Of a stretch of 23,184 nucleotides of DNA, positions 1-22,225 are shown one piece after another. The stretch's first letter is position 1, and every line of letters starts with the position of its first letter. The stretch is from Elusimicrobiota bacterium. GTDB taxonomy: Bacteria; Elusimicrobiota; UBA8919. Below the pieces are notes generated by a model that was given only the letters and a program-made list of their open reading frames with translations, was not told the DNA's origin and ran no database searches. Position numbers and translations under genes: made by a program. The DNA lies in NCBI GenBank assembly GCA_043816185.1, contig JBDRIG010000099.1, forward strand, positions 1 through 23,184, in the 5' to 3' direction.

Positions 1-11
1 GGTTAAAGTCC

Positions 12-198: not shown

Positions 199-224
199 CA
201 TAGCGGAGTCTCGCTTTTTGTGGG

Positions 225-253: not shown

Positions 254-283
254 GCAATTATTTGTAATGTTGAAACAAACGAC

Positions 284-407: not shown

Positions 408-429
408 GCGGTGGCATTTGATGTCTTAT

Positions 430-445
430 TTGGCAAAAAAATTGA
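430..445 (+). promoter_or_regulatory. TTGGCAAAAAAATTGA motif, sigma54 -24/-12-like (GG-N10-GA)
   Basis: 15/16 identical to 22893-22908; TGGCA-N6-TTG spacing is that of sigma54 promoters, but the -12 GC is GA. Confidence 0.35.
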
Positions 446-512
446 TATGCAATATAGGCATTAGGTAATAGTGAATTATATTATACAATGCGTCGTACGA
501 TGTACCACATTT

Positions 513-566
513 TTTACAAATTTTTCACAAATTTTTCACAAATTTTACATATTTGTGGAGTATATT
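513..566 (+). promoter_or_regulatory. Four 11-bp-phased direct repeats (TTTACA, TTCACA, TTCACA, TACATA) followed by -10-like TATATT; putative OmpR/PhoB-family activator-dependent promoter of the giant gene
   Basis: Hexamers start at 513, 524, 535 and 546; TATATT at 561-566; the same architecture recurs at 22226-22279. Confidence 0.65.
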
Positions 567-615
567 AGTTATGTGTGGAGTTCCTGCTAATTTTTGATTT
601 ATAGGAAACAAATTT

Positions 616-3600
616 ATGATTAACTATTTTCGTCGACCAACAGACATTCTCGATTATATAGAAATTCCGCCTATAAGAAGGATTATTGCATCTATAACAC
701 TGATTAGTTTTTTATTAACGATTCTATGGACAAACGGATTGGCGGAAGTTGCTGGAAATGCTGGAAATGCTGGAAATGCTGAAAATGCTGAAAACGCTCA
801 AAGTGGCGAAAAGACAGGAAAAAAAGGCACGCAAGAATCATCTGTGTATTATAAATGGGCCACCGTTCGCGAACAAGCACAACATGGGATATTAACAGAG
901 ATTACGGATAGCGAAAAAAATCAGGTATATAGGTTTAATAAAGAAGGTAAACTTGTCGAATTAGACGATAGAAACAGTGGGAAGACACAAAGGTTTGAGT
1001 ATGACAGCCAAGGCAATGCGAGTATAAAAACCATAAAAAGCAAAGATGTAGAAAATCGAGAAATAGAAAACGCTCCGCAGTTAGCGCAATTATTGCCACA
1101 GCAAATACGACAGCAAATAGACGTTGTTCAACAAGTACAAACCATACCACAAAAAACCGCTTTGTTAGCAGAAGCAGTTAATAACTTTTTTTCTGGAGAA
1201 GATACTGAATCTAACAAATCTGGTGAAGGAGAAGGAACTAAATCTCAGGCCAACAAACCTCAATCACCAGCCAGTGTTTCTTCATGGTTAAAAAAATATA
1301 GTGATAGCGATCCACAAAAACAACAAGGAATGCTTGCAGAGATTGGTGCTACTGAGACAGAAGTAAAAAATCTATCAGAAGAAACAAAGCAAAAGATTGC
1401 CGATTATTTAGCACTCAGTGGCTCAAAACTTCCCGATGGTGCAGTTACAACCAAAGAGTTATCTGACAGGAAAGAAGGTCTTGCTGGACTAATAGACCGC
1501 GCAAGAGCAGCAGTCACACTTCTTTTTGTAAATATAATTAGACAAGTTGCAGGTAAAAAAACACAAAAAGAAAATGCTGGTGTGGAAATATCCGTTGAAG
1601 ATATACAAAATATAGCACGACAACTTGGTATCGAATTAAATGCAACCAAAACAAATATTGACGAACTTAAAGGTGTACTTGCAAAAAATCCTGTTATAGT
1701 GCATACGCAGGATTCTAACGGCGATAGAATGTTTCTAATTATTACTGATATAAAAGGTGAAGATGTTGTTGGTATTGATTCAGACGGAAAAACACGGGTT
1801 TTAATTCCGTTGTCTGAATTTAGAGCAAAATGGACAGGCAAAATGTTGTCGTTAGCAATGACAGGAGAGGCACTTGATGCGGAGACAAAGAAAAATACTA
1901 AGGGCACATTTTTTGCACAATTATTTAACGAAATAAAAAGAGTATTTAGTGGAAGTCTTGTAGCAGTAGATGCAGGTTCACAAGTAGCGACGACAGAGGC
2001 AATAGGCGAGAGAGATACTTCTGTCGTTGCGATTATTGCGAACGTTGCGAGCTTAGCAAGCCCCGATGTTGTTGCAAAAAGCCCCAAAGGAGTGACGGAG
2101 CAACCTCAAGAGACTGCCACGATTGTTTCTGACGACACCACAACAACACAAACAGATGCAGAAAAAGCCCTCCAATCGATAGAAGCATGGTTGGGCGAAT
2201 ATATAAAAGCCGACCCACTTAAAAAAGCGCAGATGGCAGCGACGCTTGGTTTATCCACCGACCAATTAGCAAACCTATCTATTGAAACCGCAGGACAAAT
2301 CTTAAATTATTTAAAGTCACAGGGTGATAAAATCTTCAACTGTGCAATTCAGGCACTGAAAAATATCTTCACAGGACAGGGCGTAGAGTTCAATCTCACA
2401 GATGTAGCCACAAAAGCAATTTTGATTGACATTATAACTGGTAATTTAAAAATAGATTCCAATACGGGATACGATGCTTCGCAATTGCAGTTGTCGATGT
2501 TTGCGATACAAAAGACGGCGGAACTTCATAATGTCCAGTTGACTGGCTATTCTACTGATATAAACGGATTACAACAGGCGATTGCTGGTGATAGTGGCGT
2601 GGTTGTTCATCTTGATTTGGGTAATGGGATGGGACATTTTGTTGTTGTCACAAGCATCAAAGATGGTTTAGTAACATACACCGATTCCGATGGTAAATCG
2701 AAGACAGCCTCGCAAGAAGAGTTCCAAAAACAGTGGACGGGGAACATTCTTTCAACAGTTGAAATTGCTGCTGGCAAAGCACTATCGGTAGTGACTCTAC
2801 AAACGCTTCGCGGAGCATTCAATATTGGTGCGATAATAGCAGCAATAATAAAATGGATAATGAAAGCAATAATGGATCTAATAATGGGATTGTTGAAAAA
2901 AATATTTACACAAGTTTTTAAGGATATGCTTAAGAAAGTACTTGTAAAAGCAATAACTCAAGCATTTACGAAGTTGATAACCAAGGCCATAATGCAATAC
3001 GCTTTTACCCGTAAAGTTGACGCAAAGGCGTTATGGAAGGGGTTTGTGAAGGACTTTGCATTCTCATTTGTACTTAATTTTGTTTGTGAATTACCAAAGT
3101 TACTCAAGGGATTTAAAATTGCATTTTCACTCGAGGGATTTAAAATTGGAGAACTTGATATTGGTATAGCACTTGGGAAAGTGTTTAATTTAATTGGTGA
3201 CTTTGGAACAAATCCATGGCTTAAAGGGCTTCAGTTGGGTCTACAAATAGCATATAAAAATGCTATAAAAGAATCGAAGAAAGAAGGCGGTAAAGAAGTA
3301 CCAGAGTGGTTAGAAAACACTGTTGAATTTGTTGATTTAGCGGTTAGTATAGGTGCATATTATGATAGTTATATGGCTGCACCATCTTCAAAAACAAATA
3401 CGATAGCAGATGCACGAGCACCACCAGTTGATCCGGCACTGGCAGCACAAAAAGTTGCTTTGGAAGCACCACCAGAAGTTACTCCGGTAGTAGAAGTAGC
3501 ACCACTAGTTACTCAAGCGGATAGTTCTAACCTCAAAACCGAGCCCGAGACACTCGCCAAGGAATCCAAAGCAGCAGCACAACCAGTAGGTAGTTCAGGA

Positions 3601-6600
3601 TGGAAAGATCTTGGAAAAATCATATTACAAATAATTAAACAAGTGGTTGATAGTATTGTATCATTTTTACAAAAAACTAGTAATTTTTTACAAAAAATTG
3701 ATGCTAATAAAAATATAGAATTATCTTTCAAGTTATATGACATACAGAGTGGAATAGAAAAACTACGCGAAAAAAAGAGTTATGAAAAAACTGCTTCTGC
3801 GGAAGATAATTTTATGGCAGCCGCGTCTATGTTATTTGGTAGTTTATCAGGTTCATTTAAGTCCTCGCTTGAAATCACACAAAATATTTCTCAGTTATTA
3901 AAAGCCGTTGTAAATATGGTATTATCTGGGAAACAATTTAAGTATGAAACAAAATTAAAAGACCTTAAAGATAAATACGATTTAACCGATGAAGAATATG
4001 ATGAAATAATGAAAACAATGGACAAAGGTGATATAGTTGACTGGAAAAAATATGGGATGGAAGATAATAATAAAAAGTTTTCAGATTCATTAAGAGAATT
4101 AAATAAAGAAAACTACAATGCAACACGTGGATGGTCAATTGCACAATCTGTTTTAAATATTTCAGTTTCAATAACAGCGGTTATTAAAAATATTAAACCA
4201 CCCCCACAAGGTATTACTCTTGCAGGGGCGAATATGCTACAAAACAATAATATTACTTATAGTGCCTTTACAGTAGTCGGTGATATATTCAATATAATGG
4301 AATTAAGGAAGAGTTATGACAACAAAGGTATAATAAATCTTGGGAATACTTTTAAGGAAACAGCAAGTACAATTAAACTTTATTCCGACTTCACTGCGAC
4401 CGTCGTAGATTTAGTAGGTGCTGTAAAAACCCAGGGCTTGAAGTGGGATTATAATATACACACTTTTGATAAAAAAACTGACAAGGTTTTGGTTTTAGCA
4501 ACGACCTTTAAAGTAGATGGTAAACCCTTTGAAATTGTATACAAAGAAGGTATTACGATTGAAAAAGCAAATGAAGAAGCAAATAAAGCCGCAAAAGCCG
4601 CAAAAGCCGCAGACATTAATAAACTTCCAAAAACCATTACAGAGGACCCACGCAAACTTCAACCCGCTGATTCTAAGGGACAAGGAGTTTCTTCTGCCCA
4701 AGGTCAAGCAGGAACTTCTGGTGTTCCATCTGGGTCAGACCATTTTGATCCTGCCACCGTTGTATGGATTAAAAAGCTTTTTGAGAAAATTGGAGAAGTT
4801 AAAAGTATTAAGATTGGTAATTATTCGATTTCTTATGATAAAGGCAGTGATTTATTGTCTACAACCGTTTACGATAAATCAAACAATCCTCTCTATACCA
4901 TAAACTCTTTTAATCCTTCTGACAAATCTTCTGGTTTTTCTGACAGTATTACATTGCACGTAGACAAAGAATATAAAAAGGGGCAATCAACAATAAAATT
5001 GTCTAATGGTTTAGAACTTAAAGTTAGTGAATTAGAAAAACAATTCAATAATAAAGTTAAAATTGCATATTCTCCTAACGACAAAGTTACTATGGTTTAT
5101 GACACGAAAAATGGCAGTATGTCGACAACTATGGAAATTTCTGAGGACAAAACTGTCGAGTTTGGTTCTAAAACGTATCTTACTAAAGAAAAGGTTTTAG
5201 CCGAAACGTATCTTACTAAAGAATGGGTTTTAGCCAAATTTAGAGAACTGGAAAAGCAAAAATCAAAAACTGATAAATCAATAACTGATAAAGCAATAAT
5301 TGACACTCTTTGTTCTAGTACTAATTTAGGTGATAAAAACGAACTGGGTATTACTAATATCACCATAATCTCCGAAATCTCCGATGTTGTTAGTAGTGAG
5401 GTAAAAAGAGAGGTTAAAAAATTTATTATTCAGGAAACCGACTCAGGAAAAGACGAGGCCAAAAAAGTCGCACTGACCGAAGAAGAAAAACTATTACAAT
5501 ATTCTAAGGACATTAGTGTCATATCTGCTGAGAGAGTAGACAGTAATAATCTTACTATCACTACTTCCAAAGGAACTGCTCCCAAAGAAACATATAAAGC
5601 CAACATTTCTGCATTTAACATTCCTGGTATTTCTGGCAGCGTGACACTTTTGGACGATGAAAACAAAATTATTGCTAATGTGGACAAAGTGGCTCAAGGA
5701 TTTTACAATGTTAGTTATAAATCTACGGTCGGCAATGATGTCCAGCCGAAGATTGTTTCTATAATTGTTTCTACTAATGAAATGACTGGTAATAAACTAC
5801 AGTTTACCGATGGCCAGTTAGTTCCTGTTGGTATGGATAATAAACCTAATGGTACAACAAAAATAGCTATAGATGGTCTTGAAGTTGCGCTTACCTGGGA
5901 TGATAAAGAAAAGAAAGTTACAACAAGTTTTGGTGGAGTAGAAAAAGACAAAAAATATAATTTACCTTTAATTTTATTTCCTGCGGCAAGATGTAAGTTG
6001 ACGGGTTTAGAAGCAGTTGAATTTACTGGTATAGAAAATGGTGGTTTACAATTTTCTCCGAAAAATGGCGAAATTAAGTTACTTAATGGCGATAAAATAA
6101 CCTTTAAAGATTTCAATTTAATTTTGAATAGTGGAAAAATAGCGACTTCTGCGGCTTCTGAGGAGAAGACAGCGACTCCTGCGACTTCTGAGAAAATGGC
6201 GACTCCTGCGATTTCTGGAGAAACAATGATTTCTGGCGAAATGATTTTGAAGCAACGCAAATATACAAAAGTAACAAACTTCAACCAGCTAAAAATTAGC
6301 GATTCTGTCGCAGATAACAGTGGTTCATACAAAACAAATGAATCCGGCCAAAAAACAAATTCTGATGGTAGTAAGACGATTATTTCAGGTAATTTAACTA
6401 CTGAGGTAATCTTTAATAAAAAATCCGGCCAAGAAGATGCTTCTGTTACCATTCACAAAAACGGTATAAAAACATCGTATAATGAAAGTGAAAGTTTAAC
6501 AACAACATCCAAATACAGTGTAGCATCTTACAAAAATGATATTTTGGAAAGCGGGACTGCCTACGAGCAATTAGATATTAAGCTTGAAGATAGCACGTTA

Positions 6601-15600: not shown

Positions 15601-18600
15601 AAAGAAAAAACAGCGTTAGCGGGACTACATCGCGAGCAGATAATGGCCACTTTGGTTTTACTCAAGGGTTATAAAATAACAGAATTAGCTACTGGTGAAG
15701 GTAAGGCTATCATAGGTTTGGTTGCCGCCGCAGTTGAGTCGCTTAATGGAAATGGTGCATTCTTGATAAAACCGAAGACATCGGAGGCTGAAGATAATTA
15801 TAAAGAGTATGGTAATCCATTCGCTGAATTATTAGGAAAGACCATTGGCGTTGTAACCGACAATATGGATGATAGTGAAAAGAAAGAAGCTTACAAAAAA
15901 GATATCACATATATTAGCGTGTCGAATTGGGCATTTGATACAGGTCACGATATGCTTGATATAAAAAGTGATAACGAAAAACTTATAGAGAGAGACCTCA
16001 GTAAGGTTTCAGTTATAATTGATGAAGTAGATTCTGTGTTAATAGACCAGGCAATGACTAATTTTATACGTTCGAAAGGCAATGAAGAAGCAACCGAAGA
16101 AGTTAAGTCTATAAGACGTGCATTTGCTAAGATAGCCAGAGACAAACAATTTAGTGTTACCAAAGTCGCAAGAGAAGTAGTTGATAAAGAAGATGTAGCA
16201 AAAGAAGAACAAAAAATGGATAGTACATATGCTGTACTCAACTCTGCACGTGGTACCATTTCTGCTACGGATATAGGTAACGAAAAAGCGATAGATTTAT
16301 TGGGAAAATTTTTTACAGAAGAACAGTTAATTGATAACAAGCTGGTAGAGAAAAAAGGCAAGAAACTGGAACTTACCGAAGACGGCATTAGGTATCTTAG
16401 TGATGCCCTACAGGCCGAGTATGTTTATATAGAAAATGTTCAATATCGTATTGGTAAAAATATTGAGAACGACAAGGGAGACAATGAAATATTGCTTATA
16501 TCTAAGGAGACAGGTGTAACACAATATGGACAGAGATTGAATCAGCTTATGCAGGCAATTGAAGCAAAGCACGAAGTAAAAGATGGAATAAAAATTATGG
16601 GCGAAAATAGGACGACCTCAAGTATAAGTGCTAAAAACGTCCTGAGCGAGTACGGAAAAGTATCGGGTATGACAGGAACGGCACGGTATGGTGAGGCTCC
16701 CAAGATATTTAAGAAACTTTATAATTTATCAGTAGTAGTTATACCTTCGCATAATCCATTAATGAGGAAAGACGAGCCGATGAATGTGTTTAAAACAGAT
16801 GAAGAAAGAATAGAAAAATTGGTAGAGATAATAAAAATTGCGTTAAGAAATAATCAGCCTATACTTATAAATACATTAGACGTCGATGCAAGTGAAAAAT
16901 TGGCAGAAGTTTTAAAAGAAAAGCTTGGTGTCAATGTTCCACTTAGGGTATTAAATGCCAGCGTGGCAGAACAAGAAGAAGAAATTATTAAAAAGGCAGG
17001 AAGCAGTGGAATAACTATTGCTACCAATATGGCTGGAAGAGGAACGGATATAAAGTTAAGTGATGAAATATCGGAGAAGGGTGGTCTCGTGGAAGTTATA
17101 TTCGGGATAAATGATTCTGAGCGTACAGATATGCAGTCAAGAGGTCGTAGTGGTAGACAGGGTCAGAATGGCAAAACCTATATGTTCGTATCGCTTGAAT
17201 CTGATGGGAACTTTTTAGAGAGAGGTGGAGTTGGTAATATCTTATTCAAAATAACTGCTGGCGTGGCACCACAATTCATATTAAAGTACATTTTTAATAA
17301 AGCCCAAAAAAATATTGAAAAAATGAATGCGAAAAGTTTATATAATCAGACAAGTCAATCAGACAAGTTGTATGAATTGCAGATTATGCTGAAAAAAGAT
17401 GTTGAAATTATAGAAAAACAGGTCGTTCAAGTAAAAGGAGTCAATCCTGAATCAAGTGCATTGAGGCTCGAGCTTGAGAAGTTATTTAAGAAATATTGTC
17501 ATACAGACAAAGAGGTAAATATAAAAAAATTACAGGAAGCAATATCAAAAGCGTTCGGTGTAAATCTCAATATTACCAATCATGCTGGTAGCACTGTCGA
17601 TAATTTATTTAAAATCATATATGGAAATCTCATATCTCATTTCATAGGAGAAGCAAGAAGAGATAATATAGATTATGAAAAGGAAGCATTTTTCCATAGG
17701 TTAGAAGATATAGGAAGAGATGCTAAGACACCTCGTGAATATAACAAAGGTATGTTTAAAGAATATGTTGAGTTGATAAAAAATATAACAAACGCAGAAG
17801 CAATTACAGAGGAGATTCTCAATAAAACAGTTAATAACAAAATGGAGACGATAGCTAAAGCAAGAGAAGAAGAAGCAAAGAAAAAAGTGATTGAGCAGGT
17901 GGATTTAGCCATCGCTGGAATAAAAGTTGCAGAAAAAATAAAAGCAGCAAAAGAAACAGAAGTTGATCAGGTGAGTGTTACCACAGAAGTTGAAACAGAA
18001 AAAGATGAAGCACTGTCTTTATTTGATAAAGTAAAAGTGGCGATAAAAACTGTAAAAGAAGTGGTAGGGGTTGTTGTGGAATCAAGCGGTAAACGGGTTG
18101 TACTACTACAGCGTCGAAATGTTCAACAAGCCCAATCAGTTAAGAGTGAAGTTAAAACAATAAATATAGATGTTGCAGAAGGATTTACACAAGCAAAGCA
18201 GGAAGAATCTGCACAAGAGGCGAAAGCGAAATTAACGTTGGAAATTGCGAAAGTGCTGGGCAACAACGATAATGTTAGTTTAGGTGTTAGTATAGGTAGT
18301 AAAAACATTGGCAATTATACATTACCGAATAGTGTTGCAGAATATTTTGTGGCTAATCCGGAACAATTAAATGGAGCAATAAACAATAAATCCATAAACC
18401 TTATAGATGTAGATGGTCAATTCGTTCTTGTTGGAACCACACAAAATGGCAAGTTTGTAATGATAATGGTGGATTTGGACAAGGAAGTAACTGGTGAATA
18501 TCAGAGAATAATAAATTCAATATCTGATCCAACCTATGCAGGAAATATTGGTGCAAAAATTACAGAAAAAGGTGTTATAGAAATAGGTAATGTTCAGTAT

Positions 18601-21600
18601 AATCCTGGGAAAGTAGAGGCAGGTGTTATAATTATCAATTCCAATCTTGGGGACGCGAAAGTAGAATCAGGAGCATATTTAGAGAAAGTAAAGATTGAGA
18701 ATGGTAATATAGGTAAAAATTCTGTTTTAAATTATGTTGACGTTAAAACAGTGAATGTTTGTGCAGATTCAAAGGTTGTAAATATAAAACGCGAGAAACT
18801 CGACGATGGTACTGAACTCAACAATAGTGATATTGAGCCCATCGAAATTGAAGAAAATAATAGTTTAAAGTCATTAGAAGGTAAGTTCGTAAAAGGAAAA
18901 TATACAGAAGTTCCGGCTGAGTATGATATACAAAAAGCAAAAATAGTATATATATCTTCGAAGAATTTGATAATAAAACTTATTGATAAGATAAAAGAAG
19001 TGTTTAATTTTGGAGATTATACAAAATTGCAAAATATTAGAAGGGATATAGATATTGCTATAGATGCTGTATTCATCGAGAAAGATATTTATAAAACTTT
19101 TGGTAAAGATAATATTGAAGAATCTATATCTGCTATATCAGTTGACGGCGACGACGAGGAGAAGAAGAAGCAATCTTCAATATCTATAATGGATGTAAAA
19201 CAATTGGCTAAAAATATTGCCGAGAAACAAAATCCATCTAAATTACCAACAATGCCGCAACAGATGTTAAGCGGCGCAAAAACCGGTCTTAAGATATCGC
19301 TGTTACTCGTGTCAGTTATGGTGATGGCTCTACCTGTAGCAGGATGGATTACAGGTGTAGGGTTAATCAACATCGGCGGATTGGTTGCTGCTAAATTAGG
19401 GTTAGGTGGTATATCTGCCTTCATAGTAGGTGGTTCAATTAGCAGCTTAACCATGCTGCCTGCGGTGACATCAATGAAGAAACTTGTAAAAAAAGAAAAG
19501 AAAGATGCCGATGTAAATAAGCCCTCGTTAGTAAAGAGATTTACAAATTCGGCAACTGGTTTAGGAACTAAGTTGGTGGATAAACTATCTATCAATAGAC
19601 AATTAAATAATGCAATAGATGCTCTCTCAAAGGACCTCAATTTCGTAAGCGATATGGACCAGAAGAGAGCAATATACCTTACACTCAATCGACTCGTAGA
19701 TGCAAAAAATGATGAAGAATCTGAACCTGCTGTAATAAAATACAAAGCGGAAGCAGCCATAAAACTATCTATAAGATTGGATGAACAATTAAAAAAATTA
19801 GTCAAAGCAGAACAAACAATATCTATGATAGGCCAGTATGAACGAGTTTTACAGAGTTTGGGGCCCGAAAAAGAAAAAATAAAATCAGAATTGGAAAACT
19901 GCAAAACACAAAAAGACGACGTACTCGCAGAGTTGGAAAAGATATATGTGGAACTAAATATAGTTAAGGCACAACAACCCGAAGTAGAAGTGGCAAAAGA
20001 AGATTTGCCATCAAACGCGTCTGCTGTAAGCCCGCAGATTGGCAAGCGTGCAGAAGTGACGAATATAAAAGACAATGTTGTCACGGTAAAAGACAGTCAA
20101 GGGCAAAACCAGACAATTCAATTAGAGGACCCAGTAGATATCTCTGAATTAAAAACTCAACTTTTAGCAACAACTAATATGTCTGATTCGTCTAAAGCAC
20201 TTTTATTATCGATGTTGAGTTTACTTGAAAAATCACCACCAGAAAAGTTGCCTAAAATTTATACTTATTCTACTTTGGTTGATGATTTGCTTGGTTTTGC
20301 TGCACCAGAGAAAAACATAATAGCACTCCATAAATCAATGATAGACAATCCAATAGCATTGTTCCACGAAATAGCGGAGTATTTGATTAATTCAAGTGTG
20401 ATTAATTCAGGTGTGATTAATTCAGGTGTGATGAAATTAGGACTTACGGATAACAAGTTGATATTAACGATGAATAATAAATCGACAAATATTTCACTTA
20501 CTGAAAATACACTCGCGATTGCAAAGAAGGACTCTACGAGCCCACATTATCTTTTAAGAGCACTACAGAGAGAATTATTTGGCAACGAGGATTATAATCT
20601 GACTCAAAAAATAAAAGCCTTACAACAAAAACCAATCGATGCGAGCCATCCTGCGATTAAGACAATAATACGTATTAAAGGGGATAAAACAGAAAAGGAA
20701 GTTTTTGGTGATTTATTAAATAAATTACAACAAGAAGCACAGAGTAAAAATATTGATATAACAGCGGCATTTATAGAATTGTACATAGACATGTATCAGC
20801 AGAAAATTGAAATAGATGTACTTTTTAAGCACGAAGAAATTAAAATTGAATTAGTAAAAGAACTTTCAAATATTTTCAAACAACATTTTGCAGGTTACAA
20901 AATAGATATTGCTAATGTAATTAATCCGAGTATGGCTATTCAGGCACTTAGATATTTTGATGACGTAAAATTAGAAAACATAGTGGGAAATCATGAGACA
21001 TCGGTAAAATTTGCAAATGGTGAATTGACAATCGAAAGTATTCTTAAAGAAACAAAAGAAGCGTATGAAAAATCGGGCAGGGACAAAGAACAAAAATTTA
21101 TATATCAGGGTAAAGAGATAAAATCGATATCGCTAAGTGCAGTTGTTCCAAATTGTACAGAAACTGCAAAGATCGCAGAAACAAAAAGTGATATTGCAAA
21201 AATTGGAATTGCCGAAATTGGTGAAAAAGTGGTGGATGCTATATCAGTAGGGTTGAATGGTTTTTCAGAGATAATTACGGAATTTGTAAAAAAAATACAA
21301 GATAAGATACAGCAAAGAAAGTTCGATAAAAAAGTTGGAGAATATAAGAGAGAAATTAAAACGGGTATAACAAATCTTGTGAGTGGTTTTACTGATCCTA
21401 AATTTGAAAAAACGAGATCTGAAGGGATGGGACAATGTGTAATATGTCCTAAAAAACCCGAGTGGGAAATTGTGTATTACGAGGAAAGTAAGGATGTCAA
21501 CATTGAAGAAATTAAGAAAAAATGGAATACTACGAAAGATAACGCCGTGAAACATAATCTCTCGGTAATCAATGTAAATGGTGAAAATGTACTTATTGTT

Positions 21601-22008
21601 GTAAGAGAAAAAACAGAATCATTAAATTTGGATAAGTTCCCAGACCGAATAAAAGAAGTACAGTCAATAAATGAGAAACTCTGGCGGCAGGAAAAGTATG
21701 ACAGTGAACTTGCCAACGATAGATGGCAGGATAATTATGGCGTAACCGCTGACGGTAGAGTAGCATTAATAAATCCAGTTGTAGTTGCAGTGGTTACGGA
21801 GGAACAGATAAGACTGAATTTAACATTTGATCAGATTGTTGTAGTTAATACTAAAATAGAGTTTAAGTCCAATATTTGGGGAGTAGGAGAAGATGGATTT
21901 AGGCCTGACCCATTTGGTTTAGCATCTTTGTTTGACAAGTTTGTTAAAGAAAGAAAAGAATTGGGTGATATGATGAAGATGACAAAATTGTTCCGCGGCG
22001 CAGCATAA
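616..22008 (+). CDS. Giant 7130-aa multidomain membrane/secreted protein with tandem peptidase C39-like domains, multi-pass hydrophobic blocks and an embedded SecA ATPase
   Basis: 21.4-kb uninterrupted ORF in AT-rich DNA; weak SD (AGGA 603-606); recognisable C39 and SecA motifs in frame. Confidence 0.95.
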   Translation: MINYFRRPTDILDYIEIPPIRRIIASITLISFLLTILWTNGLAEVAGNAGNAGNAENAENAQSGEKTGKKGTQESSVYYKWATVREQAQHGILTEITDSEKNQVYRFNKEGKLVELDDRNSGKTQRFEYDSQGNASIKTIKSKDVENREIENAPQLAQLLPQQIRQQIDVVQQVQTIPQKTALLAEAVNNFFSGEDTESNKSGEGEGTKSQANKPQSPASVSSWLKKYSDSDPQKQQGMLAEIGATETEVKNLSEETKQKIADYLALSGSKLPDGAVTTKELSDRKEGLAGLIDRARAAVTLLFVNIIRQVAGKKTQKENAGVEISVEDIQNIARQLGIELNATKTNIDELKGVLAKNPVIVHTQDSNGDRMFLIITDIKGEDVVGIDSDGKTRVLIPLSEFRAKWTGKMLSLAMTGEALDAETKKNTKGTFFAQLFNEIKRVFSGSLVAVDAGSQVATTEAIGERDTSVVAIIANVASLASPDVVAKSPKGVTEQPQETATIVSDDTTTTQTDAEKALQSIEAWLGEYIKADPLKKAQMAATLGLSTDQLANLSIETAGQILNYLKSQGDKIFNCAIQALKNIFTGQGVEFNLTDVATKAILIDIITGNLKIDSNTGYDASQLQLSMFAIQKTAELHNVQLTGYSTDINGLQQAIAGDSGVVVHLDLGNGMGHFVVVTSIKDGLVTYTDSDGKSKTASQEEFQKQWTGNILSTVEIAAGKALSVVTLQTLRGAFNIGAIIAAIIKWIMKAIMDLIMGLLKKIFTQVFKDMLKKVLVKAITQAFTKLITKAIMQYAFTRKVDAKALWKGFVKDFAFSFVLNFVCELPKLLKGFKIAFSLEGFKIGELDIGIALGKVFNLIGDFGTNPWLKGLQLGLQIAYKNAIKESKKEGGKEVPEWLENTVEFVDLAVSIGAYYDSYMAAPSSKTNTIADARAPPVDPALAAQKVALEAPPEVTPVVEVAPLVTQADSSNLKTEPETLAKESKAAAQPVGSSGWKDLGKIILQIIKQVVDSIVSFLQKTSNFLQKIDANKNIELSFKLYDIQSGIEKLREKKSYEKTASAEDNFMAAASMLFGSLSGSFKSSLEITQNISQLLKAVVNMVLSGKQFKYETKLKDLKDKYDLTDEEYDEIMKTMDKGDIVDWKKYGMEDNNKKFSDSLRELNKENYNATRGWSIAQSVLNISVSITAVIKNIKPPPQGITLAGANMLQNNNITYSAFTVVGDIFNIMELRKSYDNKGIINLGNTFKETASTIKLYSDFTATVVDLVGAVKTQGLKWDYNIHTFDKKTDKVLVLATTFKVDGKPFEIVYKEGITIEKANEEANKAAKAAKAADINKLPKTITEDPRKLQPADSKGQGVSSAQGQAGTSGVPSGSDHFDPATVVWIKKLFEKIGEVKSIKIGNYSISYDKGSDLLSTTVYDKSNNPLYTINSFNPSDKSSGFSDSITLHVDKEYKKGQSTIKLSNGLELKVSELEKQFNNKVKIAYSPNDKVTMVYDTKNGSMSTTMEISEDKTVEFGSKTYLTKEKVLAETYLTKEWVLAKFRELEKQKSKTDKSITDKAIIDTLCSSTNLGDKNELGITNITIISEISDVVSSEVKREVKKFIIQETDSGKDEAKKVALTEEEKLLQYSKDISVISAERVDSNNLTITTSKGTAPKETYKANISAFNIPGISGSVTLLDDENKIIANVDKVAQGFYNVSYKSTVGNDVQPKIVSIIVSTNEMTGNKLQFTDGQLVPVGMDNKPNGTTKIAIDGLEVALTWDDKEKKVTTSFGGVEKDKKYNLPLILFPAARCKLTGLEAVEFTGIENGGLQFSPKNGEIKLLNGDKITFKDFNLILNSGKIATSAASEEKTATPATSEKMATPAISGETMISGEMILKQRKYTKVTNFNQLKISDSVADNSGSYKTNESGQKTNSDGSKTIISGNLTTEVIFNKKSGQEDASVTIHKNGIKTSYNESESLTTTSKYSVASYKNDILESGTAYEQLDIKLEDSTLLVYKEETKAGVHGNPPTITASIGDTEINSKNIKELQEKYNKLYTLADGNKTKLGLLLMYNGGVTILTGKNITFDTNYKNTGRQALIETGVAKGINLVHYADGVTIIGSEGDENAVAGHKGMFNEFNGMQLQVGDEYSLNKIAANKWDEAIVSEKGAIIVPLKYGKTLSIVKTPVTETTDYDYSKLKGELEDGVEIKSISKVDIIIKNAEGNPVAGGQQTLYVANGASGQIGQIILVNGGAVLQTESKIFVKIGVGGIWKSVGTTEKIDGTFDELPGTNKNNAKTKQTTTITTKDATDIGILLSAGVKQGVNYFDSNGELVCSLTSDVHGNYIAVGSRDSKGNFVTVLFDTKKDKGALPAKDKDKVKKGALPAKALPAKDKGALPAKALPAKDKGALPAEALPAKDKGALPAEAPLTEAEAIAIIKNIYLTDFSQSDVVKFSDDPAGAEVLKDLEQVIKKSNSVANTFFKDNPKASSVQIKKDKSNYVVSIAKDGQESINVFDKDGKAMYIYSNNKGEGGISVYRISVYRYNDKIIDQKGRCKPAEIGETIIIGNNVKVNIAVLKQNFGREVYIIDVFGMMLNGQEKIMVIQQLENANPKKAETPSEPQKKAETKVDAADDIKKQTRVCDPLVEDKDVTITDNIKEQITVFNSLVKVENITISNDAYTVFKIAGGDELAISQGAINRSVNITILDGDGGRIGNISKNKLGGYDVMYGGVGYTGKAVFGLLPPVSAYEKSTDAKSATITKLADIKYILQTDNTVSANITARKGYGEFEFTVWEDGANITAHKKGYSELGSTANELDTSGFANITLIIGKDTADKDVISVKDITGSWIQPISKSDVGSLVKVYDSKNKKGVMNFQSLDGVLTPITATDRKSQTITTNFSAIGTSATEREVTASVVITKDKKGNYFVSKTDAKLKNSTKVNITTFNGKLYALANGEENTTTTSALNVKGESTVISTTLVGTKDGINIGASKRTGDDIEVVFRNFNDKLYALADGQKIDGDSWTAKNTEIDGKKRLALVRALTSDECKNITTLDKKLSVNNDTAIEIEVAMLSEGVFVVLGDVKCQYANSEKSKDAATLEKGAIISRDNDNKLIVIKGELAVEGGNNIIIAKSKEGGGDIKEAKTNKIKGKSKGVGGDVQKVNTKAVVIEIGDSYVVSNGKVSIRNGQFVVIGDGTILKKGSNLVGIGPVSGGDLKLVLNNNGELVYRSADNRIVSTTQFDKKTGLGLVTHYDEKGISGLSIIDENVNKGALQKVVDSNKIDGTEKTLFITGDISKGNGRAYILSDRCISRADNGKYASTNGEVKTKCVVENGIINGKNFKMYGLIDGKWRQGYITKDANNSNQQIFVVVDNGELVSVRKLLVDNEGKYRIGKKVIGAGIVVQEDIDKKGTNIVATWNGKNAPGLYLETFVGSNGKRSKTAEIVMNDGSKVHIAIMFGELKLLTGAKGLNLEKNGEFKDGGRLVKIKEFKFDNETGAITVYGVMTLSKEQKWVSTSDNISQHYGAKVGKESKESYKCTGTARIDQSKHTENIVITTTDGEVKLGIAFGLQKYFADGGLNKNNTQVTHFCKGSKIIAGTEVNLSDGKTSTVQKEKDYKINVKNNNIEIEQGTIIEIHRDGGIINNLDHITKGSVKIEQKVDIHDAKKNKNIYGGNRTVTYMPNADPQVDVKGDISQVSIGDGRFHIDLESTEFEVGRGFIRSVWDCVLSVPELLGGTLSGIVGIGLDSPKIIQTSYKLFVSAVNRLYGERDLSDDTKFTVGRVAVTVIIAVLTFVPIGRIVTFAGTLLKSLAKPLITLIARVTPVTVKFIGRMMNRIFNPFSMRFTDNIVHKIVMKIFPNAITASSGVVGNVIVQFSVKSTEALLKIALPMLRNAIIWGNPYVSLPLVGKNGVIGSVLIDSQLVKKLGIDIDRELYQAIANLAFFAPILASGMKSPASESIAESQISLLGAIKQSAIKLSQRIGNFIHHPARSMKDITRKSLFEGICNAIKKVSSWDTIKAGKKKLVEKGLKGVKKTVGSKIKENMINFVPRTIGMVSDIAMFQTSIGLVGGCINTSLGGKERRFLIFYIPKFSSVKDAIIKTSDIAVDTITDYRMWLFAVAIGVLGPLFTPIFRNFSVLGPIMRWIGGKNVFVGGKFATGRLGRYQRFIYEEAFQERLPEILMGKLGITGTWSEVVQEMFDRRGGGGSSKNYNTAVSDLGGDYINSVENINSLNNKDELSNIVGVMSKQLNERLSQNGNGVSVSVDIVSVGGGVKGGIEVKVKIVNDTIPDISFGVQEIYLNTVEELQNLMLSIGEAAVSGVSLSSDEVASRIAENNLILNNSENNSELGINCLSAEEKISLLSGMSGFSNIFGGDLNVIDKSGRISISAIDNAIKERNQSLTNNELLLKYVIGIVPIIENIKDSLTKIHLTKTVDTTINIKDSITKTQLTETVDTTINIFVEKVKNNSPPASVAPSVAQNLINLSALSNLSATILNSELGTEIKTKIVSSALPSISGAIPNTTFLTNLADPTIQIQNAQFITSLIMILKYLRQNNNTGALHSLFVSVMKNQSLLKLAEHTPLSHDGYTALDYLSSISENIDVGKLLQEAEVEAQKVEADLVAASDDAVKIAGGLTPDQDIMGSAGREKIIKTNSGIKEITDEKGKKEKLEEKDRDKKKDEKEEEKKRDLDQKNNLVAASKDLSAKSPIQIAATVKRLAIITKILALQNRARKKIQYTTISNISKLLLELNISDTPLSAEEISSELVYQYIASLATLQSISSESEDKKIQKIAESIEKKIKDVTESLKIERNDDAKEFFSAASKLADSGKKDEGNISRDENGISDVVEEGVKERNKATENKAHTTLKEKLARAVVEFISLLPDSTKKQDRLKKYAMLFYKEDIDVVQKEMELLESEIMDEIAAWNEVDSALIKNDSNQLKEIKKKITNKKVNLADIYNEEVGNEGVGRKILTKILTAKDEALKNRVTSEGLTDDIKLEAIALYSLTASIFKRWLNKEKTALAGLHREQIMATLVLLKGYKITELATGEGKAIIGLVAAAVESLNGNGAFLIKPKTSEAEDNYKEYGNPFAELLGKTIGVVTDNMDDSEKKEAYKKDITYISVSNWAFDTGHDMLDIKSDNEKLIERDLSKVSVIIDEVDSVLIDQAMTNFIRSKGNEEATEEVKSIRRAFAKIARDKQFSVTKVAREVVDKEDVAKEEQKMDSTYAVLNSARGTISATDIGNEKAIDLLGKFFTEEQLIDNKLVEKKGKKLELTEDGIRYLSDALQAEYVYIENVQYRIGKNIENDKGDNEILLISKETGVTQYGQRLNQLMQAIEAKHEVKDGIKIMGENRTTSSISAKNVLSEYGKVSGMTGTARYGEAPKIFKKLYNLSVVVIPSHNPLMRKDEPMNVFKTDEERIEKLVEIIKIALRNNQPILINTLDVDASEKLAEVLKEKLGVNVPLRVLNASVAEQEEEIIKKAGSSGITIATNMAGRGTDIKLSDEISEKGGLVEVIFGINDSERTDMQSRGRSGRQGQNGKTYMFVSLESDGNFLERGGVGNILFKITAGVAPQFILKYIFNKAQKNIEKMNAKSLYNQTSQSDKLYELQIMLKKDVEIIEKQVVQVKGVNPESSALRLELEKLFKKYCHTDKEVNIKKLQEAISKAFGVNLNITNHAGSTVDNLFKIIYGNLISHFIGEARRDNIDYEKEAFFHRLEDIGRDAKTPREYNKGMFKEYVELIKNITNAEAITEEILNKTVNNKMETIAKAREEEAKKKVIEQVDLAIAGIKVAEKIKAAKETEVDQVSVTTEVETEKDEALSLFDKVKVAIKTVKEVVGVVVESSGKRVVLLQRRNVQQAQSVKSEVKTINIDVAEGFTQAKQEESAQEAKAKLTLEIAKVLGNNDNVSLGVSIGSKNIGNYTLPNSVAEYFVANPEQLNGAINNKSINLIDVDGQFVLVGTTQNGKFVMIMVDLDKEVTGEYQRIINSISDPTYAGNIGAKITEKGVIEIGNVQYNPGKVEAGVIIINSNLGDAKVESGAYLEKVKIENGNIGKNSVLNYVDVKTVNVCADSKVVNIKREKLDDGTELNNSDIEPIEIEENNSLKSLEGKFVKGKYTEVPAEYDIQKAKIVYISSKNLIIKLIDKIKEVFNFGDYTKLQNIRRDIDIAIDAVFIEKDIYKTFGKDNIEESISAISVDGDDEEKKKQSSISIMDVKQLAKNIAEKQNPSKLPTMPQQMLSGAKTGLKISLLLVSVMVMALPVAGWITGVGLINIGGLVAAKLGLGGISAFIVGGSISSLTMLPAVTSMKKLVKKEKKDADVNKPSLVKRFTNSATGLGTKLVDKLSINRQLNNAIDALSKDLNFVSDMDQKRAIYLTLNRLVDAKNDEESEPAVIKYKAEAAIKLSIRLDEQLKKLVKAEQTISMIGQYERVLQSLGPEKEKIKSELENCKTQKDDVLAELEKIYVELNIVKAQQPEVEVAKEDLPSNASAVSPQIGKRAEVTNIKDNVVTVKDSQGQNQTIQLEDPVDISELKTQLLATTNMSDSSKALLLSMLSLLEKSPPEKLPKIYTYSTLVDDLLGFAAPEKNIIALHKSMIDNPIALFHEIAEYLINSSVINSGVINSGVMKLGLTDNKLILTMNNKSTNISLTENTLAIAKKDSTSPHYLLRALQRELFGNEDYNLTQKIKALQQKPIDASHPAIKTIIRIKGDKTEKEVFGDLLNKLQQEAQSKNIDITAAFIELYIDMYQQKIEIDVLFKHEEIKIELVKELSNIFKQHFAGYKIDIANVINPSMAIQALRYFDDVKLENIVGNHETSVKFANGELTIESILKETKEAYEKSGRDKEQKFIYQGKEIKSISLSAVVPNCTETAKIAETKSDIAKIGIAEIGEKVVDAISVGLNGFSEIITEFVKKIQDKIQQRKFDKKVGEYKREIKTGITNLVSGFTDPKFEKTRSEGMGQCVICPKKPEWEIVYYEESKDVNIEEIKKKWNTTKDNAVKHNLSVINVNGENVLIVVREKTESLNLDKFPDRIKEVQSINEKLWRQEKYDSELANDRWQDNYGVTADGRVALINPVVVAVVTEEQIRLNLTFDQIVVVNTKIEFKSNIWGVGEDGFRPDPFGLASLFDKFVKERKELGDMMKMTKLFRGAA
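673..744 (+). other. N-terminal signal peptide or signal anchor (IRRIIASITLISFLLTILWTNGLA)
   Basis: Basic RR, a 16-aa hydrophobic core and a G-L-A possible cleavage site, after an unusually long n-region. Confidence 0.7.
751..795 (+). repeat. 9-bp in-frame tandem repeat GCTG(G/A)AAAT x5 (AGN/AEN)
   Basis: Directly visible. Confidence 0.9.
883..1020 (+). other. Short YD/RHS-like repeat segment
   Basis: HGILTEITDSEKNQVYRFNKEGKLVELDDRNSGKTQRFEYDSQGN follows the YD-repeat pattern (YDxxGxL); only about 2-3 units. Confidence 0.55.
1282..1908 (+). other. C39-like module 1 (helical pre-domain plus degenerate peptidase), catalytically dead
   Basis: Aligns by eye with module 2 (PVIVH..., EFRAKWTG); the Cys position is Gly (codon 1438) and the His position is Met (codon 1729). 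Confidence 0.7.
2185..2817 (+). other. C39-like module 2 with intact Cys576/His674/Asp690
   Basis: Q...NCAIQAL (Cys codon 2341), LSMFAIQKTA, VVVHL...GHFVVV (His 2635), TYTDS (Asp 2683), EEFQKQWTG: the classic C39 family motif order. Confidence 0.85.
2818..3360 (+). other. Cationic amphipathic and hydrophobic helical region, possibly membrane-inserting
   Basis: FNIGAIIAAIIKWIMKAIMDLIMGLLKKIFTQVFKDMLKKVLVKAI... with 3-4 residue hydrophobic periodicity. Confidence 0.6.
4585..4611 (+). repeat. AAAGCCGCA x3 (KAA)
   Basis: Perfect 9-bp tandem repeat. Confidence 0.9.
5171..5235 (+). repeat. 33-bp tandem duplication (TYLTKE[K/W]VLA)
   Basis: Two copies differing at one codon. Confidence 0.9.
6142..6246 (+). 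repeat. Degenerate tandem repeats (ATSAASEEKT/ATPATSEKM/ATPAISGETM/ISGEM)
   Basis: Recurring GCGACT(T/C)CTGCG and ATTTCTGG units. Confidence 0.75.
7654..7842 (+). repeat. Coding minisatellite: 8 copies of GCACTCCCAGCA in a 39-bp higher-order unit (KDKGALPA[K/E]ALPA)
   Basis: Near-perfect nucleotide identity between units; 15-bp and 24-bp subunits. Confidence 0.95.
8158..8187 (+). repeat. Perfect 15-bp duplication (ISVYR x2)
   Basis: ATTTCTGTCTATAGA twice. Confidence 0.9.
8455..8586 (+). repeat. Diverged 66-bp tandem duplication
   Basis: DDIKKQTRVCDPLVEDKDVTIT / DNIKEQITVFNSLVKVENITIS with matching nucleotides. Confidence 0.75.
11707..13158 (+). other. Multi-pass hydrophobic/basic helical block (several probable TM segments)
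   Basis: For example VAVTVIIAVLTFVPIGRIVTFAGTLL, AIANLAFFAPILASG and MWLFAVAIGVLGPLFTPIF; ends with acidic EEAFQERLPE...EVVQEMFD then a GGGGS linker. Confidence 0.65.
13816..13929 (+). repeat. 57-bp tandem duplication (NIKDS[L/I]TKxxLT[K/E]TVDTTI)
   Basis: Two highly similar copies in frame. Confidence 0.9.
15211..17787 (+). other. Embedded SecA-like translocase ATPase (NBD1, PPXD, NBD2, scaffold helix and IRA1-like end)
   Basis: ELATGEGKA (15682-15708), KKEAYKKDITY, IIDEVDSVLIDQA (DEVD at 16021), QAIEAK, SGMTGTA (16663-16683), VVVIPSH, VLNA, IATNMAGRGTDIKL (17017-17058), QSRGRSGRQG (17134-17163), AQKNIE: all SecA signature motifs in canonical order. Boundaries approximate. Confidence 0.92.
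18577..18790 (+). other. Short hexapeptide-like (left-handed beta-helix) segment
   Basis: KVEAGVIIINSNLGDAKVESGAYLEKVKIENGNIGKNSVLNYVDV resembles GlgC/GlmU C-terminal repeats. Confidence 0.5.
19288..19467 (+). other. Gly-rich hydrophobic hairpin (2-3 TM helices, glycine-zipper-like)
   Basis: ISLLLVSVMVMALPVAGWITGVGLINIGGLVAAKLGLGGISAFIVGGSISSLTMLPAV. Confidence 0.7.
20170..20620 (+). other. Zincin-like domain with variant HExxE motif
   Basis: DDLLGFA...IIALH...IALFHEIAEYL (His codon 20365) has the strand-strand-helix layout of minimal zincins; a further His at codon 20545. Confidence 0.4.
20386..20430 (+). repeat. 15-bp tandem repeat x3 (INS[S/G]V)
   Basis: ATTAATTCA(A/G)GTGTG three times. 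Confidence 0.9.
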
Positions 22009-22089: not shown

Positions 22090-22204
22090 CGTCATTTGTG
22101 GGCGAAGCGAAGCAATCTTTAAAACATTTCTCGTCGGAAAGAGATTGCCGCGGCTTCCTTCGAAAGCCTCGCAATAACCAAAAGTGGAGTTATAACACAG
22201 TCTG
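22090..22204. repeat. Complete REP/MITE-like branched palindrome plus TTATAACACAGTCTG end motif
   Basis: Outer arms GTCATTTGTGGG / CTCGCAATAAC, inner GCAATCT (22112-22118) / AGATTGC (22142-22148), and GGCTT/AAGCC hairpin; ACACAGTCTG shared with 130-139. Confidence 0.7.
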
Positions 22205-22225
22205 CGTGACCGTGCGCCGTTACTT

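Follow-up and report, generated by a model that had tools for sequence, protein, structure and literature searches.

The locus and the encoded protein

The window analysed here, that is, the whole stretch of 23,184 bp, is an entire contig (C99) of a genome bin of an uncultured, groundwater-type bacterium (G000; 1.44 Mb in 112 contigs, 34% GC, 94% complete), and it holds one giant gene of 7,130 codons and two small open reading frames (ORFs) only. The encoded protein joins in one chain a signal-like anchor, a YD-like segment, two peptidase domains of the C39 family, a leader-like site of the double-glycine type, amphipathic helices, a long stalk, a multi-transmembrane (TM) block, a motor resembling SecA, a beta-helix-like segment, a hydrophobic hairpin and a module with an HExxEY motif, in this order (Table 1). 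The same order had been laid out in an earlier interpretation made from the letters alone (the sequence-only reading), and the ORF, Pfam, hydropathy and alignment analyses place the domains as described there. The genome also encodes a separate housekeeping SecA of 880 residues, which is 85-87% identical to the SecAs of three Elusimicrobia/Elusimicrobiota metagenome-assembled genomes (MAGs) and 55-65% identical to further, mostly Elusimicrobiota, sequences; on these grounds, the host genome is placed in the Elusimicrobiota. The architecture is that of a known class, the giant proteins of Omnitrophota, in a smaller member from an Elusimicrobiota host, and what our analysis adds is a conserved candidate self-cleavage motif behind one C39 domain, a mosaic make-up across phyla and an altered Walker A motif in the motor.

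Two C39 domains and a conserved site behind the live one

Pfam reports Peptidase_C39 (PF03412) with an E-value of 3.4e-21 in two stretches within residues ~300-713, and the two domains are paralogous (30% identity, E 7e-17). A self-BLAST of the whole protein gave no internal repeats at E < 1e-4, and was disregarded, since the direct comparison of the C39 pair is significant. As the sequence-only reading had it, the first copy is dead, with Gly275 and Met372 at the catalytic positions, as opposed to Cys576, His674 and Asp690 of the live second copy, the His region of which aligns to the C39 domain of PDB entry 7n87. Directly behind the live domain, at residues 723-735, lies the leader-like site LSVVTLQTLRGA followed by F, with Leu723, Leu728 and Leu731 at positions -12, -7 and -4. 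In the double-glycine leaders of bacteriocins, these three positions are hydrophobic and positions -2/-1 read G-[G/A/S].

The glycine-type site, which had also been pointed out from the letters alone, gains strong support from comparison. Namely, residues 541-760 were compared with 401 genomes of the same phylum at E <= 1e-6, giving matches in 38 genomes and 19 of 123 genera; of the 65 matches listed, 46 belong to uninterrupted frames that are 2,000 aa or longer, the longest having 12,189 aa, and one frame often contains several. From 30 of these loci, a scripted alignment recovered 30 domain copies in 24 loci. In the 24 copies that retain Cys and His, a G-[A/S] pair invariably occupies one and the same alignment column shortly after the domain. 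Positions -4 and -7 are hydrophobic in all of these copies, T or A being accepted as well, and position -12 in 22 of them. In the six loci dropped by the script, the motif is seen by eye in five, with one true G-G, while the sixth is frameshifted and unreadable, which brings the total to 29 of 29 readable live copies. Another large protein, P0161 (5,703 aa), carries the motif too, and an Omnitrophota giant, P0004, has a C39-like domain with no obvious leader-like motif. In the six copies without Cys and His, all of them upstream tandem partners, the leader of GG type is lacking throughout; TKG[T/R]F stands behind five of them, and the sixth has G-S but no hydrophobic residue at -4 or -12. Loss of Cys and His from the first domain is also found in a relative from the same genus and in four other genera. 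In that relative, the giant of a sister species (G001, contig C7), the first C39 is likewise dead, the live domain is nearly identical, and the stretch IAAGKxLSVxTLQTLRGAF directly behind it is fully conserved.

The sequence after the motif differs among copies: some have amphipathic or cationic helices there, others K/T-rich repeats or Pro/Thr linkers, and one has a Hint-like CFAAGTKILMADNS. In a 12,189-aa frame (locus L035, G118:C11), a Hint/intein-like motif (CCFAAGTKILMADNS) comes immediately after the G-A site behind a live C39 copy, so that two different self-processing devices would sit back to back.

Predicted docking points in the same direction as the conservation. A model of the C39 domain (residues 545-712) with the peptide 713-746 scored 0.66, the best of three controls reaching 0.01, and the mark it passed is reached by 51 of 78 solved complexes and by 2 of 108 mismatched pairs. 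The runs agreed in at least 68% of contacts, the partner was modelled with a predicted local distance difference test (pLDDT) of at least 57, and the confident contacts join residues 575-577, 672-675 and 691, that is, the surroundings of the triad, with peptide residues 715-736. Taken together, the conservation and the model suggest that the live domain would probably cleave the giant, in cis or in trans, after Gly733-Ala734. Further cut sites were also considered and rejected: a loose form of the leader pattern occurs 4 times in the protein as against 2.3 +/- 1.4 times in 300 shuffles, and comparative support exists only for the site at 723-734. Since the loose pattern is not enriched, we propose one cut here and not many.

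The SecA-like motor

The claim that the giant carries a SecA of its own stands. Pfam finds SecA_DEAD (PF07517) at 6.9e-41, P-loop_SecA at 1.6e-30, Helicase_C at 2.3e-5 and SecA_PP_bind (PF01043) at 0.016, and the motor aligns to solved SecA/SecA2 structures with an E-value of 1e-65. The AlphaFold2 (AF2) model is of high confidence for residues 4940-5537, with the preprotein cross-linking domain (PPXD) confidently predicted within the first nucleotide-binding domain (NBD1), and the top Foldseek matches are all SecA or SecA2 (E ~1e-39). With the cell's own 880-aa SecA, the motor shares 33% identity over NBD1-PPXD-NBD2, and BLAST against that protein shows no similarity behind NBD2. In the Pfam search of the whole protein, the scaffold/wing family PF07516 is not reported at E <= 0.1. 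The Foldseek alignments extend over 800-860 columns, through most of the SecA chains, and one of the NCBIfam models can be aligned up to its position 1090 of 1118, into the low-pLDDT region behind NBD2. The NCBIfam models for SecA and SecA2 score 214-294 bits, far below their cut-offs of 725-1,493, and the canonical SecA equivalog TIGR00963, in particular, gives 282.5 bits against 800.

The motor motifs DEVD, TGTA, TNMAGRGTDI and RGRSGRQG are intact. The Walker A motif, on the other hand, reads TGEGKA (residues 5026-5031) and not GKT, departing from the canonical GxxxxGK[T/S]; in an alignment of 63 sequences, the last position is occupied by T 58 times, by S 3 times and by A twice. In P-loop NTPases, the Walker A threonine coordinates Mg2+. 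One explanation, which we regard as improbable, is that the motor no longer turns over ATP; as an anchor that binds nucleotide or docks to SecY, or by clamping the unfolded chain, it would keep the giant at the translocon or organise its cytoplasmic half. The replacement of a threonine or serine kept in 61 of 63 sequences speaks for it, as do the long branches of the giant clade described below, the LIDQAMT(N/S)FIRS that this clade has behind Walker B in place of LIDEARTPLIISG, and the low NCBIfam scores. Against this, the remaining catalytic motifs are undamaged, the region of the arginine finger among them, and the motor's nearest relatives still have GKT or GKS; the lone A may have arisen recently, or may stem from a mistake in assembly or sequencing that affects one codon.

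Relatives of the motor and the mosaic make-up of the gene

A HMMER search of 1.84 billion representative sequences with the motor returned giants at the top, namely, P0007 (412 bits), P0002 (353) and P0008 (256) from Omnitrophota and P0003 (248; 7,417 aa), with all SecAs of canonical size ranking below the giant ones, at 245 bits or less. In a FastTree phylogeny of 63 motor domains over 541 columns, from the alignment of which P0003, P0008 and P0020 were left out, our protein, P0007, P0002 and P0047 form an exclusive clade with support of 1.0 and long branches. Within the phylum, a search of 400 other genomes with residues 4900-6100 found, among the 150 matches listed (271 more lie beyond these), only ordinary SecAs, in frames of 657-1,044 aa and scoring at most 231 bits.

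Besides the motor, the similarity to P0002 and P0007 covers the helices behind it and the beta-helix-like segment, and nothing else. The call of a beta-helix thus stands as far as a hexapeptide-like periodicity, seen by eye around residues 5985-6060, and the resemblance to two Omnitrophota giants go, but no Pfam family matches. The giant of the sister species, by contrast with these, aligns to the two ends of our protein, residues 1-1292 (40% identity) and 6474-7130 (36-43%). No SecA was found in that giant by BLASTP, Pfam or genome search, and its genome holds only the canonical SecA (the bin being 78% complete); more generally, four of the five genomes with the closest C39 giants have only the canonical SecA. 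Since the ends are shared with a SecA-less giant and the motor segment is closest to giants of Omnitrophota, the gene is, judging from these alignments, a mosaic, with a C39 head and C-terminal tail common within the genus and a motor, helices and beta-helix-like segment whose kin lie in another phylum. Between these parts, no relatives of the TM block, the linker and the hairpin were detected by phmmer among the Omnitrophota giants and the G001 giant, the stalk showed no similarity in the same comparison, and by BLAST, the stalk resembles the G001 giant weakly and in two places only (25-29% identity). Word-index searches were shallow (5, 4 and 3 matches) and give no measure of rarity.

Two further features of the G001:C7 giant may be recorded: it is split by a frameshift into frames of 1,318 and 7,942 aa that overlap by 89 nt (loci L008/L009), and it has a second, internal copy of the region with the HExxEY module. 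The flanks show no synteny with G001:C7.

A mosaic in a metagenome bin invites the question of whether the 7,130-aa ORF is an assembly chimera of two or more genes. The contig is short, its ends are repeats common to many other contigs of the bin, the central third has relatives in Omnitrophota and both ends have others, and read-level bridging of the junctions was not obtained. Nevertheless, we consider a chimera very improbable. A single frame is open over 21.4 kb, with an even GC content of 0.33-0.41 and positive GC and AT skews, that is, a purine-rich coding strand, throughout; the tandem repeats within it are in frame, with periods that are mostly multiples of 3 according to Tandem Repeats Finder (TRF); and a chance in-frame fusion with both parts open would be very unlikely. 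Moreover, the order TM block, SecA, beta-helix-like segment recurs in independent Omnitrophota proteins. Finally, contigs at 99-100% identity on every module come from an RNA-library run (X1), in which 6% of the sampled sequence words are present; its short contigs fall on the stalk, TM block, linker, SecA and C-terminus, 12 of 20 at 99% identity or more. As these contigs do not bridge the junctions, they neither prove transcription nor test the assembly. On balance, we hold with high confidence that the gene is genuine, intact and a member of the giant C39/SecA class.

N-terminus, stalk and membrane segments

The n- and h-regions of the N-terminal anchor are identical in the same-genus relative G001. 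The segment behind it, previously called YD-like, is strongly conserved in that relative as well, but its RHS_repeat match (one stretch, residues 108-134) stays below the Pfam threshold (E 0.038; 14.9 bits as against a cut-off of 22), and with no multiple YD repeats above that threshold, we do not assign it to the RHS/YD-repeat family. The amphipathic helices were recovered, in that 14 of the 25 highest helical hydrophobic-moment windows of the whole protein fall in residues 744-1086. The stalk is as long as claimed and without a recognisable domain in Pfam or NCBIfam over residues 1293-3690, but its supposed richness in beta structure comes down to a weak, uninformative trend in the Chou-Fasman index (differences of 0.01-0.07); its repeats include a K/A/P-rich one at nt 7653-7840.

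Do these parts amount to a surface adhesin, or an effector in the manner of polymorphic toxins? In that case, the N-terminal half would be a fibre with which other cells are bound or damaged, and the role of the toxin itself, or of a releasing protease, would fall to the C39 domain, as in Tox-PL-C39 domains. The YD/RHS-like segment and the cationic amphipathic helices directly behind the cut site fit such a picture; polymorphic toxins may have a papain-like domain of C39 type as their toxin module, according to the available part of PMC3482391, and uncharacterised proteins longer than 5,000 aa are over-represented in Elusimicrobiota, according to that of PMC11573180. We still find this quite unlikely. 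Neither Pfam nor NCBIfam recognises a toxin, adhesin, Ig-like or hydrolase domain, and the RHS match does not reach its threshold; in polymorphic toxins the toxin sits at the C-terminus, and this end is predicted to be cytoplasmic here and is shared with a giant that carries a sugar-nucleotide enzyme; and the contig, with its giant gene and two small ORFs, leaves no immunity-like gene to assess. The attack function proposed earlier likewise finds no toxin, hydrolase or adhesin domain to rest on in Pfam, NCBIfam or the fold searches.

Both membrane features of the sequence-only reading, the TM block and the hairpin, are present, the latter as a stretch of 71 hydrophobic residues. The TM block has two strong hydrophobic segments (3762-3780 and about 4095-4113) and up to six weaker ones, and residues 3691-4130 carry a net charge of +28. 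The last strong segment (about aa 4093-4113) has an acidic flank upstream, and the 35 residues after it contain 7 K/R and no D/E. Because of this positive flank, and because the motor needs cytoplasmic ATP, a cytoplasmic position of SecA is plausible, and with it, on hydropathy and charge, an exported N-terminal half. As both flanks of residues 6217-6287 are basic, we read this stretch as a hairpin and the tail behind it as cytoplasmic. A protein-atlas lead on the TM block (residues 3690-4200; best score 0.85, low recognition at 1393, with PT-TG in 57% of the members of one cluster) was not used.

Proposed mechanism

We propose the following chain of steps, to which, as a whole, we give a probability of roughly 0.55. 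The signal-like anchor would send the first ~3,700 residues across the cytoplasmic membrane, as hydropathy and charge suggest, the exported stretch thus comprising the YD-like segment, the dead and the live C39, the amphipathic helices and the domain-less stalk. The live C39 (Cys576/His674/Asp690) would then bind the leader-like helix directly behind it, a step for which motif, conservation and predicted docking speak, and would presumably cut its own chain after Gly733-Ala734, freeing a pro-region of ~690 residues and exposing a hydrophobic, Lys-rich new N-terminus at Phe735. The TM block would return the chain to the cytoplasm, where, on the predicted topology, the SecA-like motor would be held at the membrane between the TM block and the hydrophobic hairpin, followed by the cytoplasmic HExxEY module and the shared C-terminal domain. 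In the last and least certain step, the tethered motor would most likely be a dedicated helper, similar to an accessory SecA, for giant chains at SecYEG, acting in trans on later copies or late in export and not threading its own N-terminus from the start; whether it is competent as an ATPase is uncertain given the GKA of Walker A, and it may only bind. This role of the motor we put forward tentatively, as something that may well turn out otherwise.

The sequence-only reading had gone further, namely, to a machine that threads itself, in which the built-in, active SecA pushes its own N-terminal half, or cargo, through the membrane of the producer or of a target cell. The motor has the full set of helicase motifs bar the Walker A Thr (DEVD, TGTA, GRGTDI, GRSGRQG) and a confidently predicted PPXD inserted in NBD1, the flanking TM segments could hold it at a channel, and a separate housekeeping SecA leaves the fused copy free to specialise; the same proposal is also made in the available part of 10.1101/2023.11.21.568195. 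That said, the motor lies ~4,900 codons behind the signal peptide and therefore cannot start the export of its own chain; since it is made last, and since the same N-terminal cassette occurs without a SecA module in the same-genus relative, any role in export would be late or in trans. In addition, only canonical SecA is found in four of the five checked genomes with the closest C39 giants, Walker A is GKA, and no channel-like domain is recognised in the TM block. The division into an exported half and a cytoplasmic SecA is thus plausible, but strict self-threading is unlikely, given the gene order, the SecA-less relative and the GKA.

Returning to the steps proposed above, several points weigh against them. 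The docking model may reflect likeness to solved C39-leader complexes, and the two pieces, being neighbours in the chain, may pack together simply because of that; it is just as conceivable that the docked segment acts as an autoinhibitory pseudo-substrate, which is the main alternative to cleavage. The C39 domains of ABC exporters work in the cytoplasm. The signal-like N-terminus would put this C39 outside, so that either the compartment differs or the N-terminus is no signal. The topology is based on Kyte-Doolittle hydropathy and charge counts only, and the TM block shows just two strong segments; an even number would put SecA on the wrong side. With its GKA, the motor may be a poor ATPase, and the helical region behind NBD2 is modelled at pLDDT < 50. 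A weak SecA_DEAD match of 29.6 bits in a different frame, of 6,931 aa, in genome G118 (contig C24) means that giants bearing SecA are not unique to this genome within the phylum, and the motor matches beyond those listed may bear on the same point. Finally, the RNA-library contigs leave 13 of 30 bins uncovered, with the module junctions unbridged.

A bolder picture would join three claims. First, C39 and leader would form a self-cleaving maturation switch that a whole family of Elusimicrobiota giants has in common. It would be present in 29 genomes or more, spread over 19 of the 123 genera sampled, and often repeated along one chain, the giants then being polyproteins cut at defined G-[A/S] bonds. 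Second, the cut would unmask a cationic, amphipathic, bacteriocin-like N-terminus at the tip of a stalk of 3,000 residues still anchored in the membrane of the producer, a kind of tethered, membrane-active harpoon. Third, motor, helices and beta-helix-like part, perhaps with the flanking TM segments, would be a portable cassette for export, exchanged between giants of Omnitrophota and Elusimicrobiota. That all three should hold jointly is doubtful.

Giant bacterial proteins are numerous in uncultured phyla related to the Planctomycetes-Verrucomicrobia-Chlamydiae (PVC) group, and none has a demonstrated mechanism. Here, a defined bond between Ala734 and Phe735, a triad and a short fragment (residues 545-800) make self-cleavage testable and, if it is true, the leader motif predicts cut positions in dozens of other giant chains and thereby sets of defined products. 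What is more, C39 head and SecA motor are separable, the sister species offering a natural comparison with and without the motor for its contribution, and the GKA of Walker A raises the possibility that some giant-protein motors are no longer ATPases.

Comparison with known systems

Omnitrophota giants with a signal peptide, an N-terminal C39 and many TM helices have been described by West-Roberts et al. 2023 (10.1101/2023.11.21.568195); as far as the available part of the preprint goes, they carry SecA_DEAD and PP-binding domains without scaffold or wing, and their SecA domains are proposed to export the giant itself or accessory proteins. In a further preprint (10.64898/2026.06.07.730766), C39 and SecA_DEAD are the two largest architecture clusters. 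The mention of Omnitrophota-like giants in the sequence-only reading was therefore correct and its interpretation right in outline, but the system it called undescribed is not new, the same combination and self-export proposal being found in the available text of the former preprint. Our protein resembles these giants in its signal-like N-terminus (hydrophobic at residues 20-41) followed by a C39 (PF03412) near the N-terminus, in its TM segments, in the separate canonical SecA of the genome, in SecA_DEAD and PP-binding parts without a detectable scaffold/wing, and in the place of the motor in a separate, long-branched clade of giant SecAs. It differs in its Elusimicrobiota host; in its 7,130 aa, which is below the preprint's 30,000-aa threshold for a giant; in having no glycosyl-transferase, hydrolase, methyltransferase or dockerin domain (Pfam, E <= 0.1), and hence neither the Archaeovorin-type nor the dockerin-type content, the two named types of the preprint; and, as compared with those described, in the tandem of a dead and a live C39 and the conserved double-glycine-type motif in cis. 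The main text of either preprint makes no mention of double-glycine, cleavage or polyprotein (supplementary tables not covered), and we found no description of a SecA/C39 giant in Elusimicrobiota or of a cis leader motif in the literature, subscription journals and preprint supplements not being covered.

The peptidase and its site recall the peptidase-containing ABC transporters (PCATs), such as ComA and LahT, by the Cys/His/Asp triad, the alignment of the His region to PDB 7n87 and, in the substrate-like motif, the hydrophobic -4, -7 and -12 and the G-[G/A/S] at -2/-1. Unlike in PCATs, there is no ABC transporter fusion (the NCBIfam PCAT models give 32-41 bits against cut-offs of 500-853), the leader-like motif is in the same polypeptide, directly C-terminal to the protease, with the remaining ~6,400 residues as cargo, and the C39 is probably extracytoplasmic. 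The first C39, without catalytic Cys and His, is similar to the C39-like domain (CLD) of HlyB-type RTX exporters, as cited in the available text of 10.1101/2023.11.21.568195, but differs from it in being paired with a live C39 on a giant and not with an ABC transporter, and in the TKG(T/R)F motif of its own behind it.

As for the motor, secondary SecA_DEAD proteins beside genes resembling type I secretion, with a proposed role in non-canonical export, were described by Kamneva, Poudel and Ward 2015 (PMC4452313). Judging from the available part of that article, they share with our motor the nature of a second, truncated SecA-type ATPase in PVC-related bacteria, but they are stand-alone proteins in an operon with adaptor and TolC-like genes, and ours is a module of a giant chain with no such neighbours. 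The motor may also be set beside SecA2, being a second, specialised motor of SecA type next to the housekeeping one, plausibly for an outsized substrate. Accessory SecA2 systems export very large serine-rich adhesins. Our motor differs from them in its scores (TIGR03714, 247 bits against a cut-off of 930; TIGR04221, 246 against 725) and in being fused into its presumed substrate.

C-terminal modules

The HExxE domain of the sequence-only reading is confirmed as FHEIAEY at residues 6583-6589, inside a conserved module of ~200 residues. Counterparts of this module, 30-44% identical, are found in the G001 giant and in another four large multidomain proteins, of which one comes from an Omnitrophota MAG, and in an alignment of eight rows HE..EYL is kept in all six that bear the module. 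Directly behind FHEIAEYL, at 20384-20432, a 15-nt in-frame repeat (VINSG units) occurs 3.3 times; since the homologue P0155 has a gap of 10 residues there, it may be a variable microsatellite in a conserved module.

The AF2 model of residues 6290-7130 has a mean pLDDT of 46, with only residues 6478-6668 at 70-85. For the C-terminal region, Foldseek against the PDB gave nothing at E <= 0.001, and a wide VIA-align search returned only generic ferredoxin-like matches, with Z up to 7.1, in the low-confidence part. The idea of an atypical kinase was dropped, as the look-alikes in the protein atlas were weak (best 0.81). The last ~450 residues are shared with a further giant ORF of the bin, on contig C106 (locus L025; at least 1,679 aa), which carries a UDP-glucose pyrophosphorylase (UDPGP) domain. 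Among 12 complete giant or large proteins, nine end in Ala, six of these in Ala-Ala (GAA, SAA, QAA, IAA, VAA and AAA); such ends, seen among P0001, P0002, P0003, P0007, P0047, P0156, P0157, P0158 and the G001 giant, recall C-terminal degradation tags.

Table 1. Features of the window, in order along the forward strand (residues refer to the giant protein).
Feature	Residues (aa)	Position (nt)	Strand	Basis or characteristics
11-nt tandem repeat ATTTTTCACAA, x3.5		509..546	+	TRF; ~70 nt upstream of the start codon
Giant ORF	1-7130	616..22008	+	7,130 codons plus stop, ATG start, no internal stop
N-terminal signal-like anchor	1-43	616..744	+	RR, PPIRR, hydrophobic aa 20-41, then GLA followed by EV
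YD/RHS-like segment	76-135	841..1020	+	Conserved; below Pfam threshold
Dead C39-like domain	251-415	1366..1860	+	Gly275 for Cys, Met372 for His, Asp388 kept
Conserved ETKKNTKGTFFA..FSG motif behind the dead domain	423-446	1882..1953	+	Comparison with relatives
Live C39 peptidase domain	551-712	2266..2751	+	Cys576, His674, Asp690
Double-glycine-type leader-like motif KALSVVTLQTLRGA	721-734	2776..2817	+	Proposed scissile bond between Ala734 and Phe735
Lys-rich amphipathic helical region	735-1292	2818..4491	+	Conserved with the same-genus relative
Stalk, ~2,400 aa	1293-3690	4492..11685	+	No recognisable domain; in-frame tandem repeats
Multi-TM block	3704-4122	11725..12981	+	Kyte-Doolittle hydropathy, charge
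Acidic low-complexity linker	4123-4947	12982..15456	+	Predicted cytoplasmic
SecA-like motor (NBD1, PPXD, NBD2)	4948-5537	15457..17226	+	Pfam, NCBIfam, BLAST, AF2, Foldseek
Helical region behind the motor	5538-5900	17227..18315	+	Possibly divergent scaffold/wing; low-confidence model
Beta-helix-like segment	5956-6066	18481..18813	+	Hexapeptide-periodic; common with Omnitrophota giants P0002 and P0007
71-residue hydrophobic stretch	6217-6287	19264..19476	+	Two, perhaps three, TM segments
HExxEY module	6464-6670	20005..20625	+	LIEDLFGFA, FHEIAEYL, PHYLLRALQRE
C-terminal domain	6678-7130	20647..22005	+	Common with the G001 giant and a second giant ORF (C106)
Small ORF, 86 aa		22364-22624	+	Clear signal peptide (MKGILASLILCAGVVSFAIAAG...)
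Second small ORF		22928-23182	+	Runs off the contig; N-terminus hydrophobic

Flanks of the gene and other large ORFs of the bin

At 97-100% identity, the first ~130 bp of the window (1-130) recur at the ends of over 20 further contigs of the bin, and the last 141 bp (23044-23184) are identical to the end of contig C106; evidently, a high-copy repeat breaks the assembly at many places. Dispersed intergenic repeats of 30-110 bp, 85-100% identical and found on dozens of contigs, lie at 123-200, 318-378 and 22100-22210. They resemble elements of MITE/REP type and match no Rfam family, and in the window as a whole Rfam gives no match at gathering thresholds. Similar to the tandem repeat upstream of the giant gene is a TTTTTCACAA-rich stretch at ~22225-22270, between the giant's stop and the next small ORF; a piece of this ATTTTTCACAA/TTTTTCACAA type with 96% identity stands downstream of the giant ORF on C106. 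These repeats may be a shared promoter or regulator site.

Besides C106, three other contigs of the bin carry large ORFs. On C101 (L136/L137), one frame is open over at least 9,632 aa with almost no Pfam match; on C18 (L140), an ORF of at least 2,393 aa fuses GGDEF, trehalose-phosphatase, phosphorylase, GH77 and amylo-1,6-glucosidase; and on C67 (L139), an ORF of 3,097 aa has Por_Secre_tail at its end.

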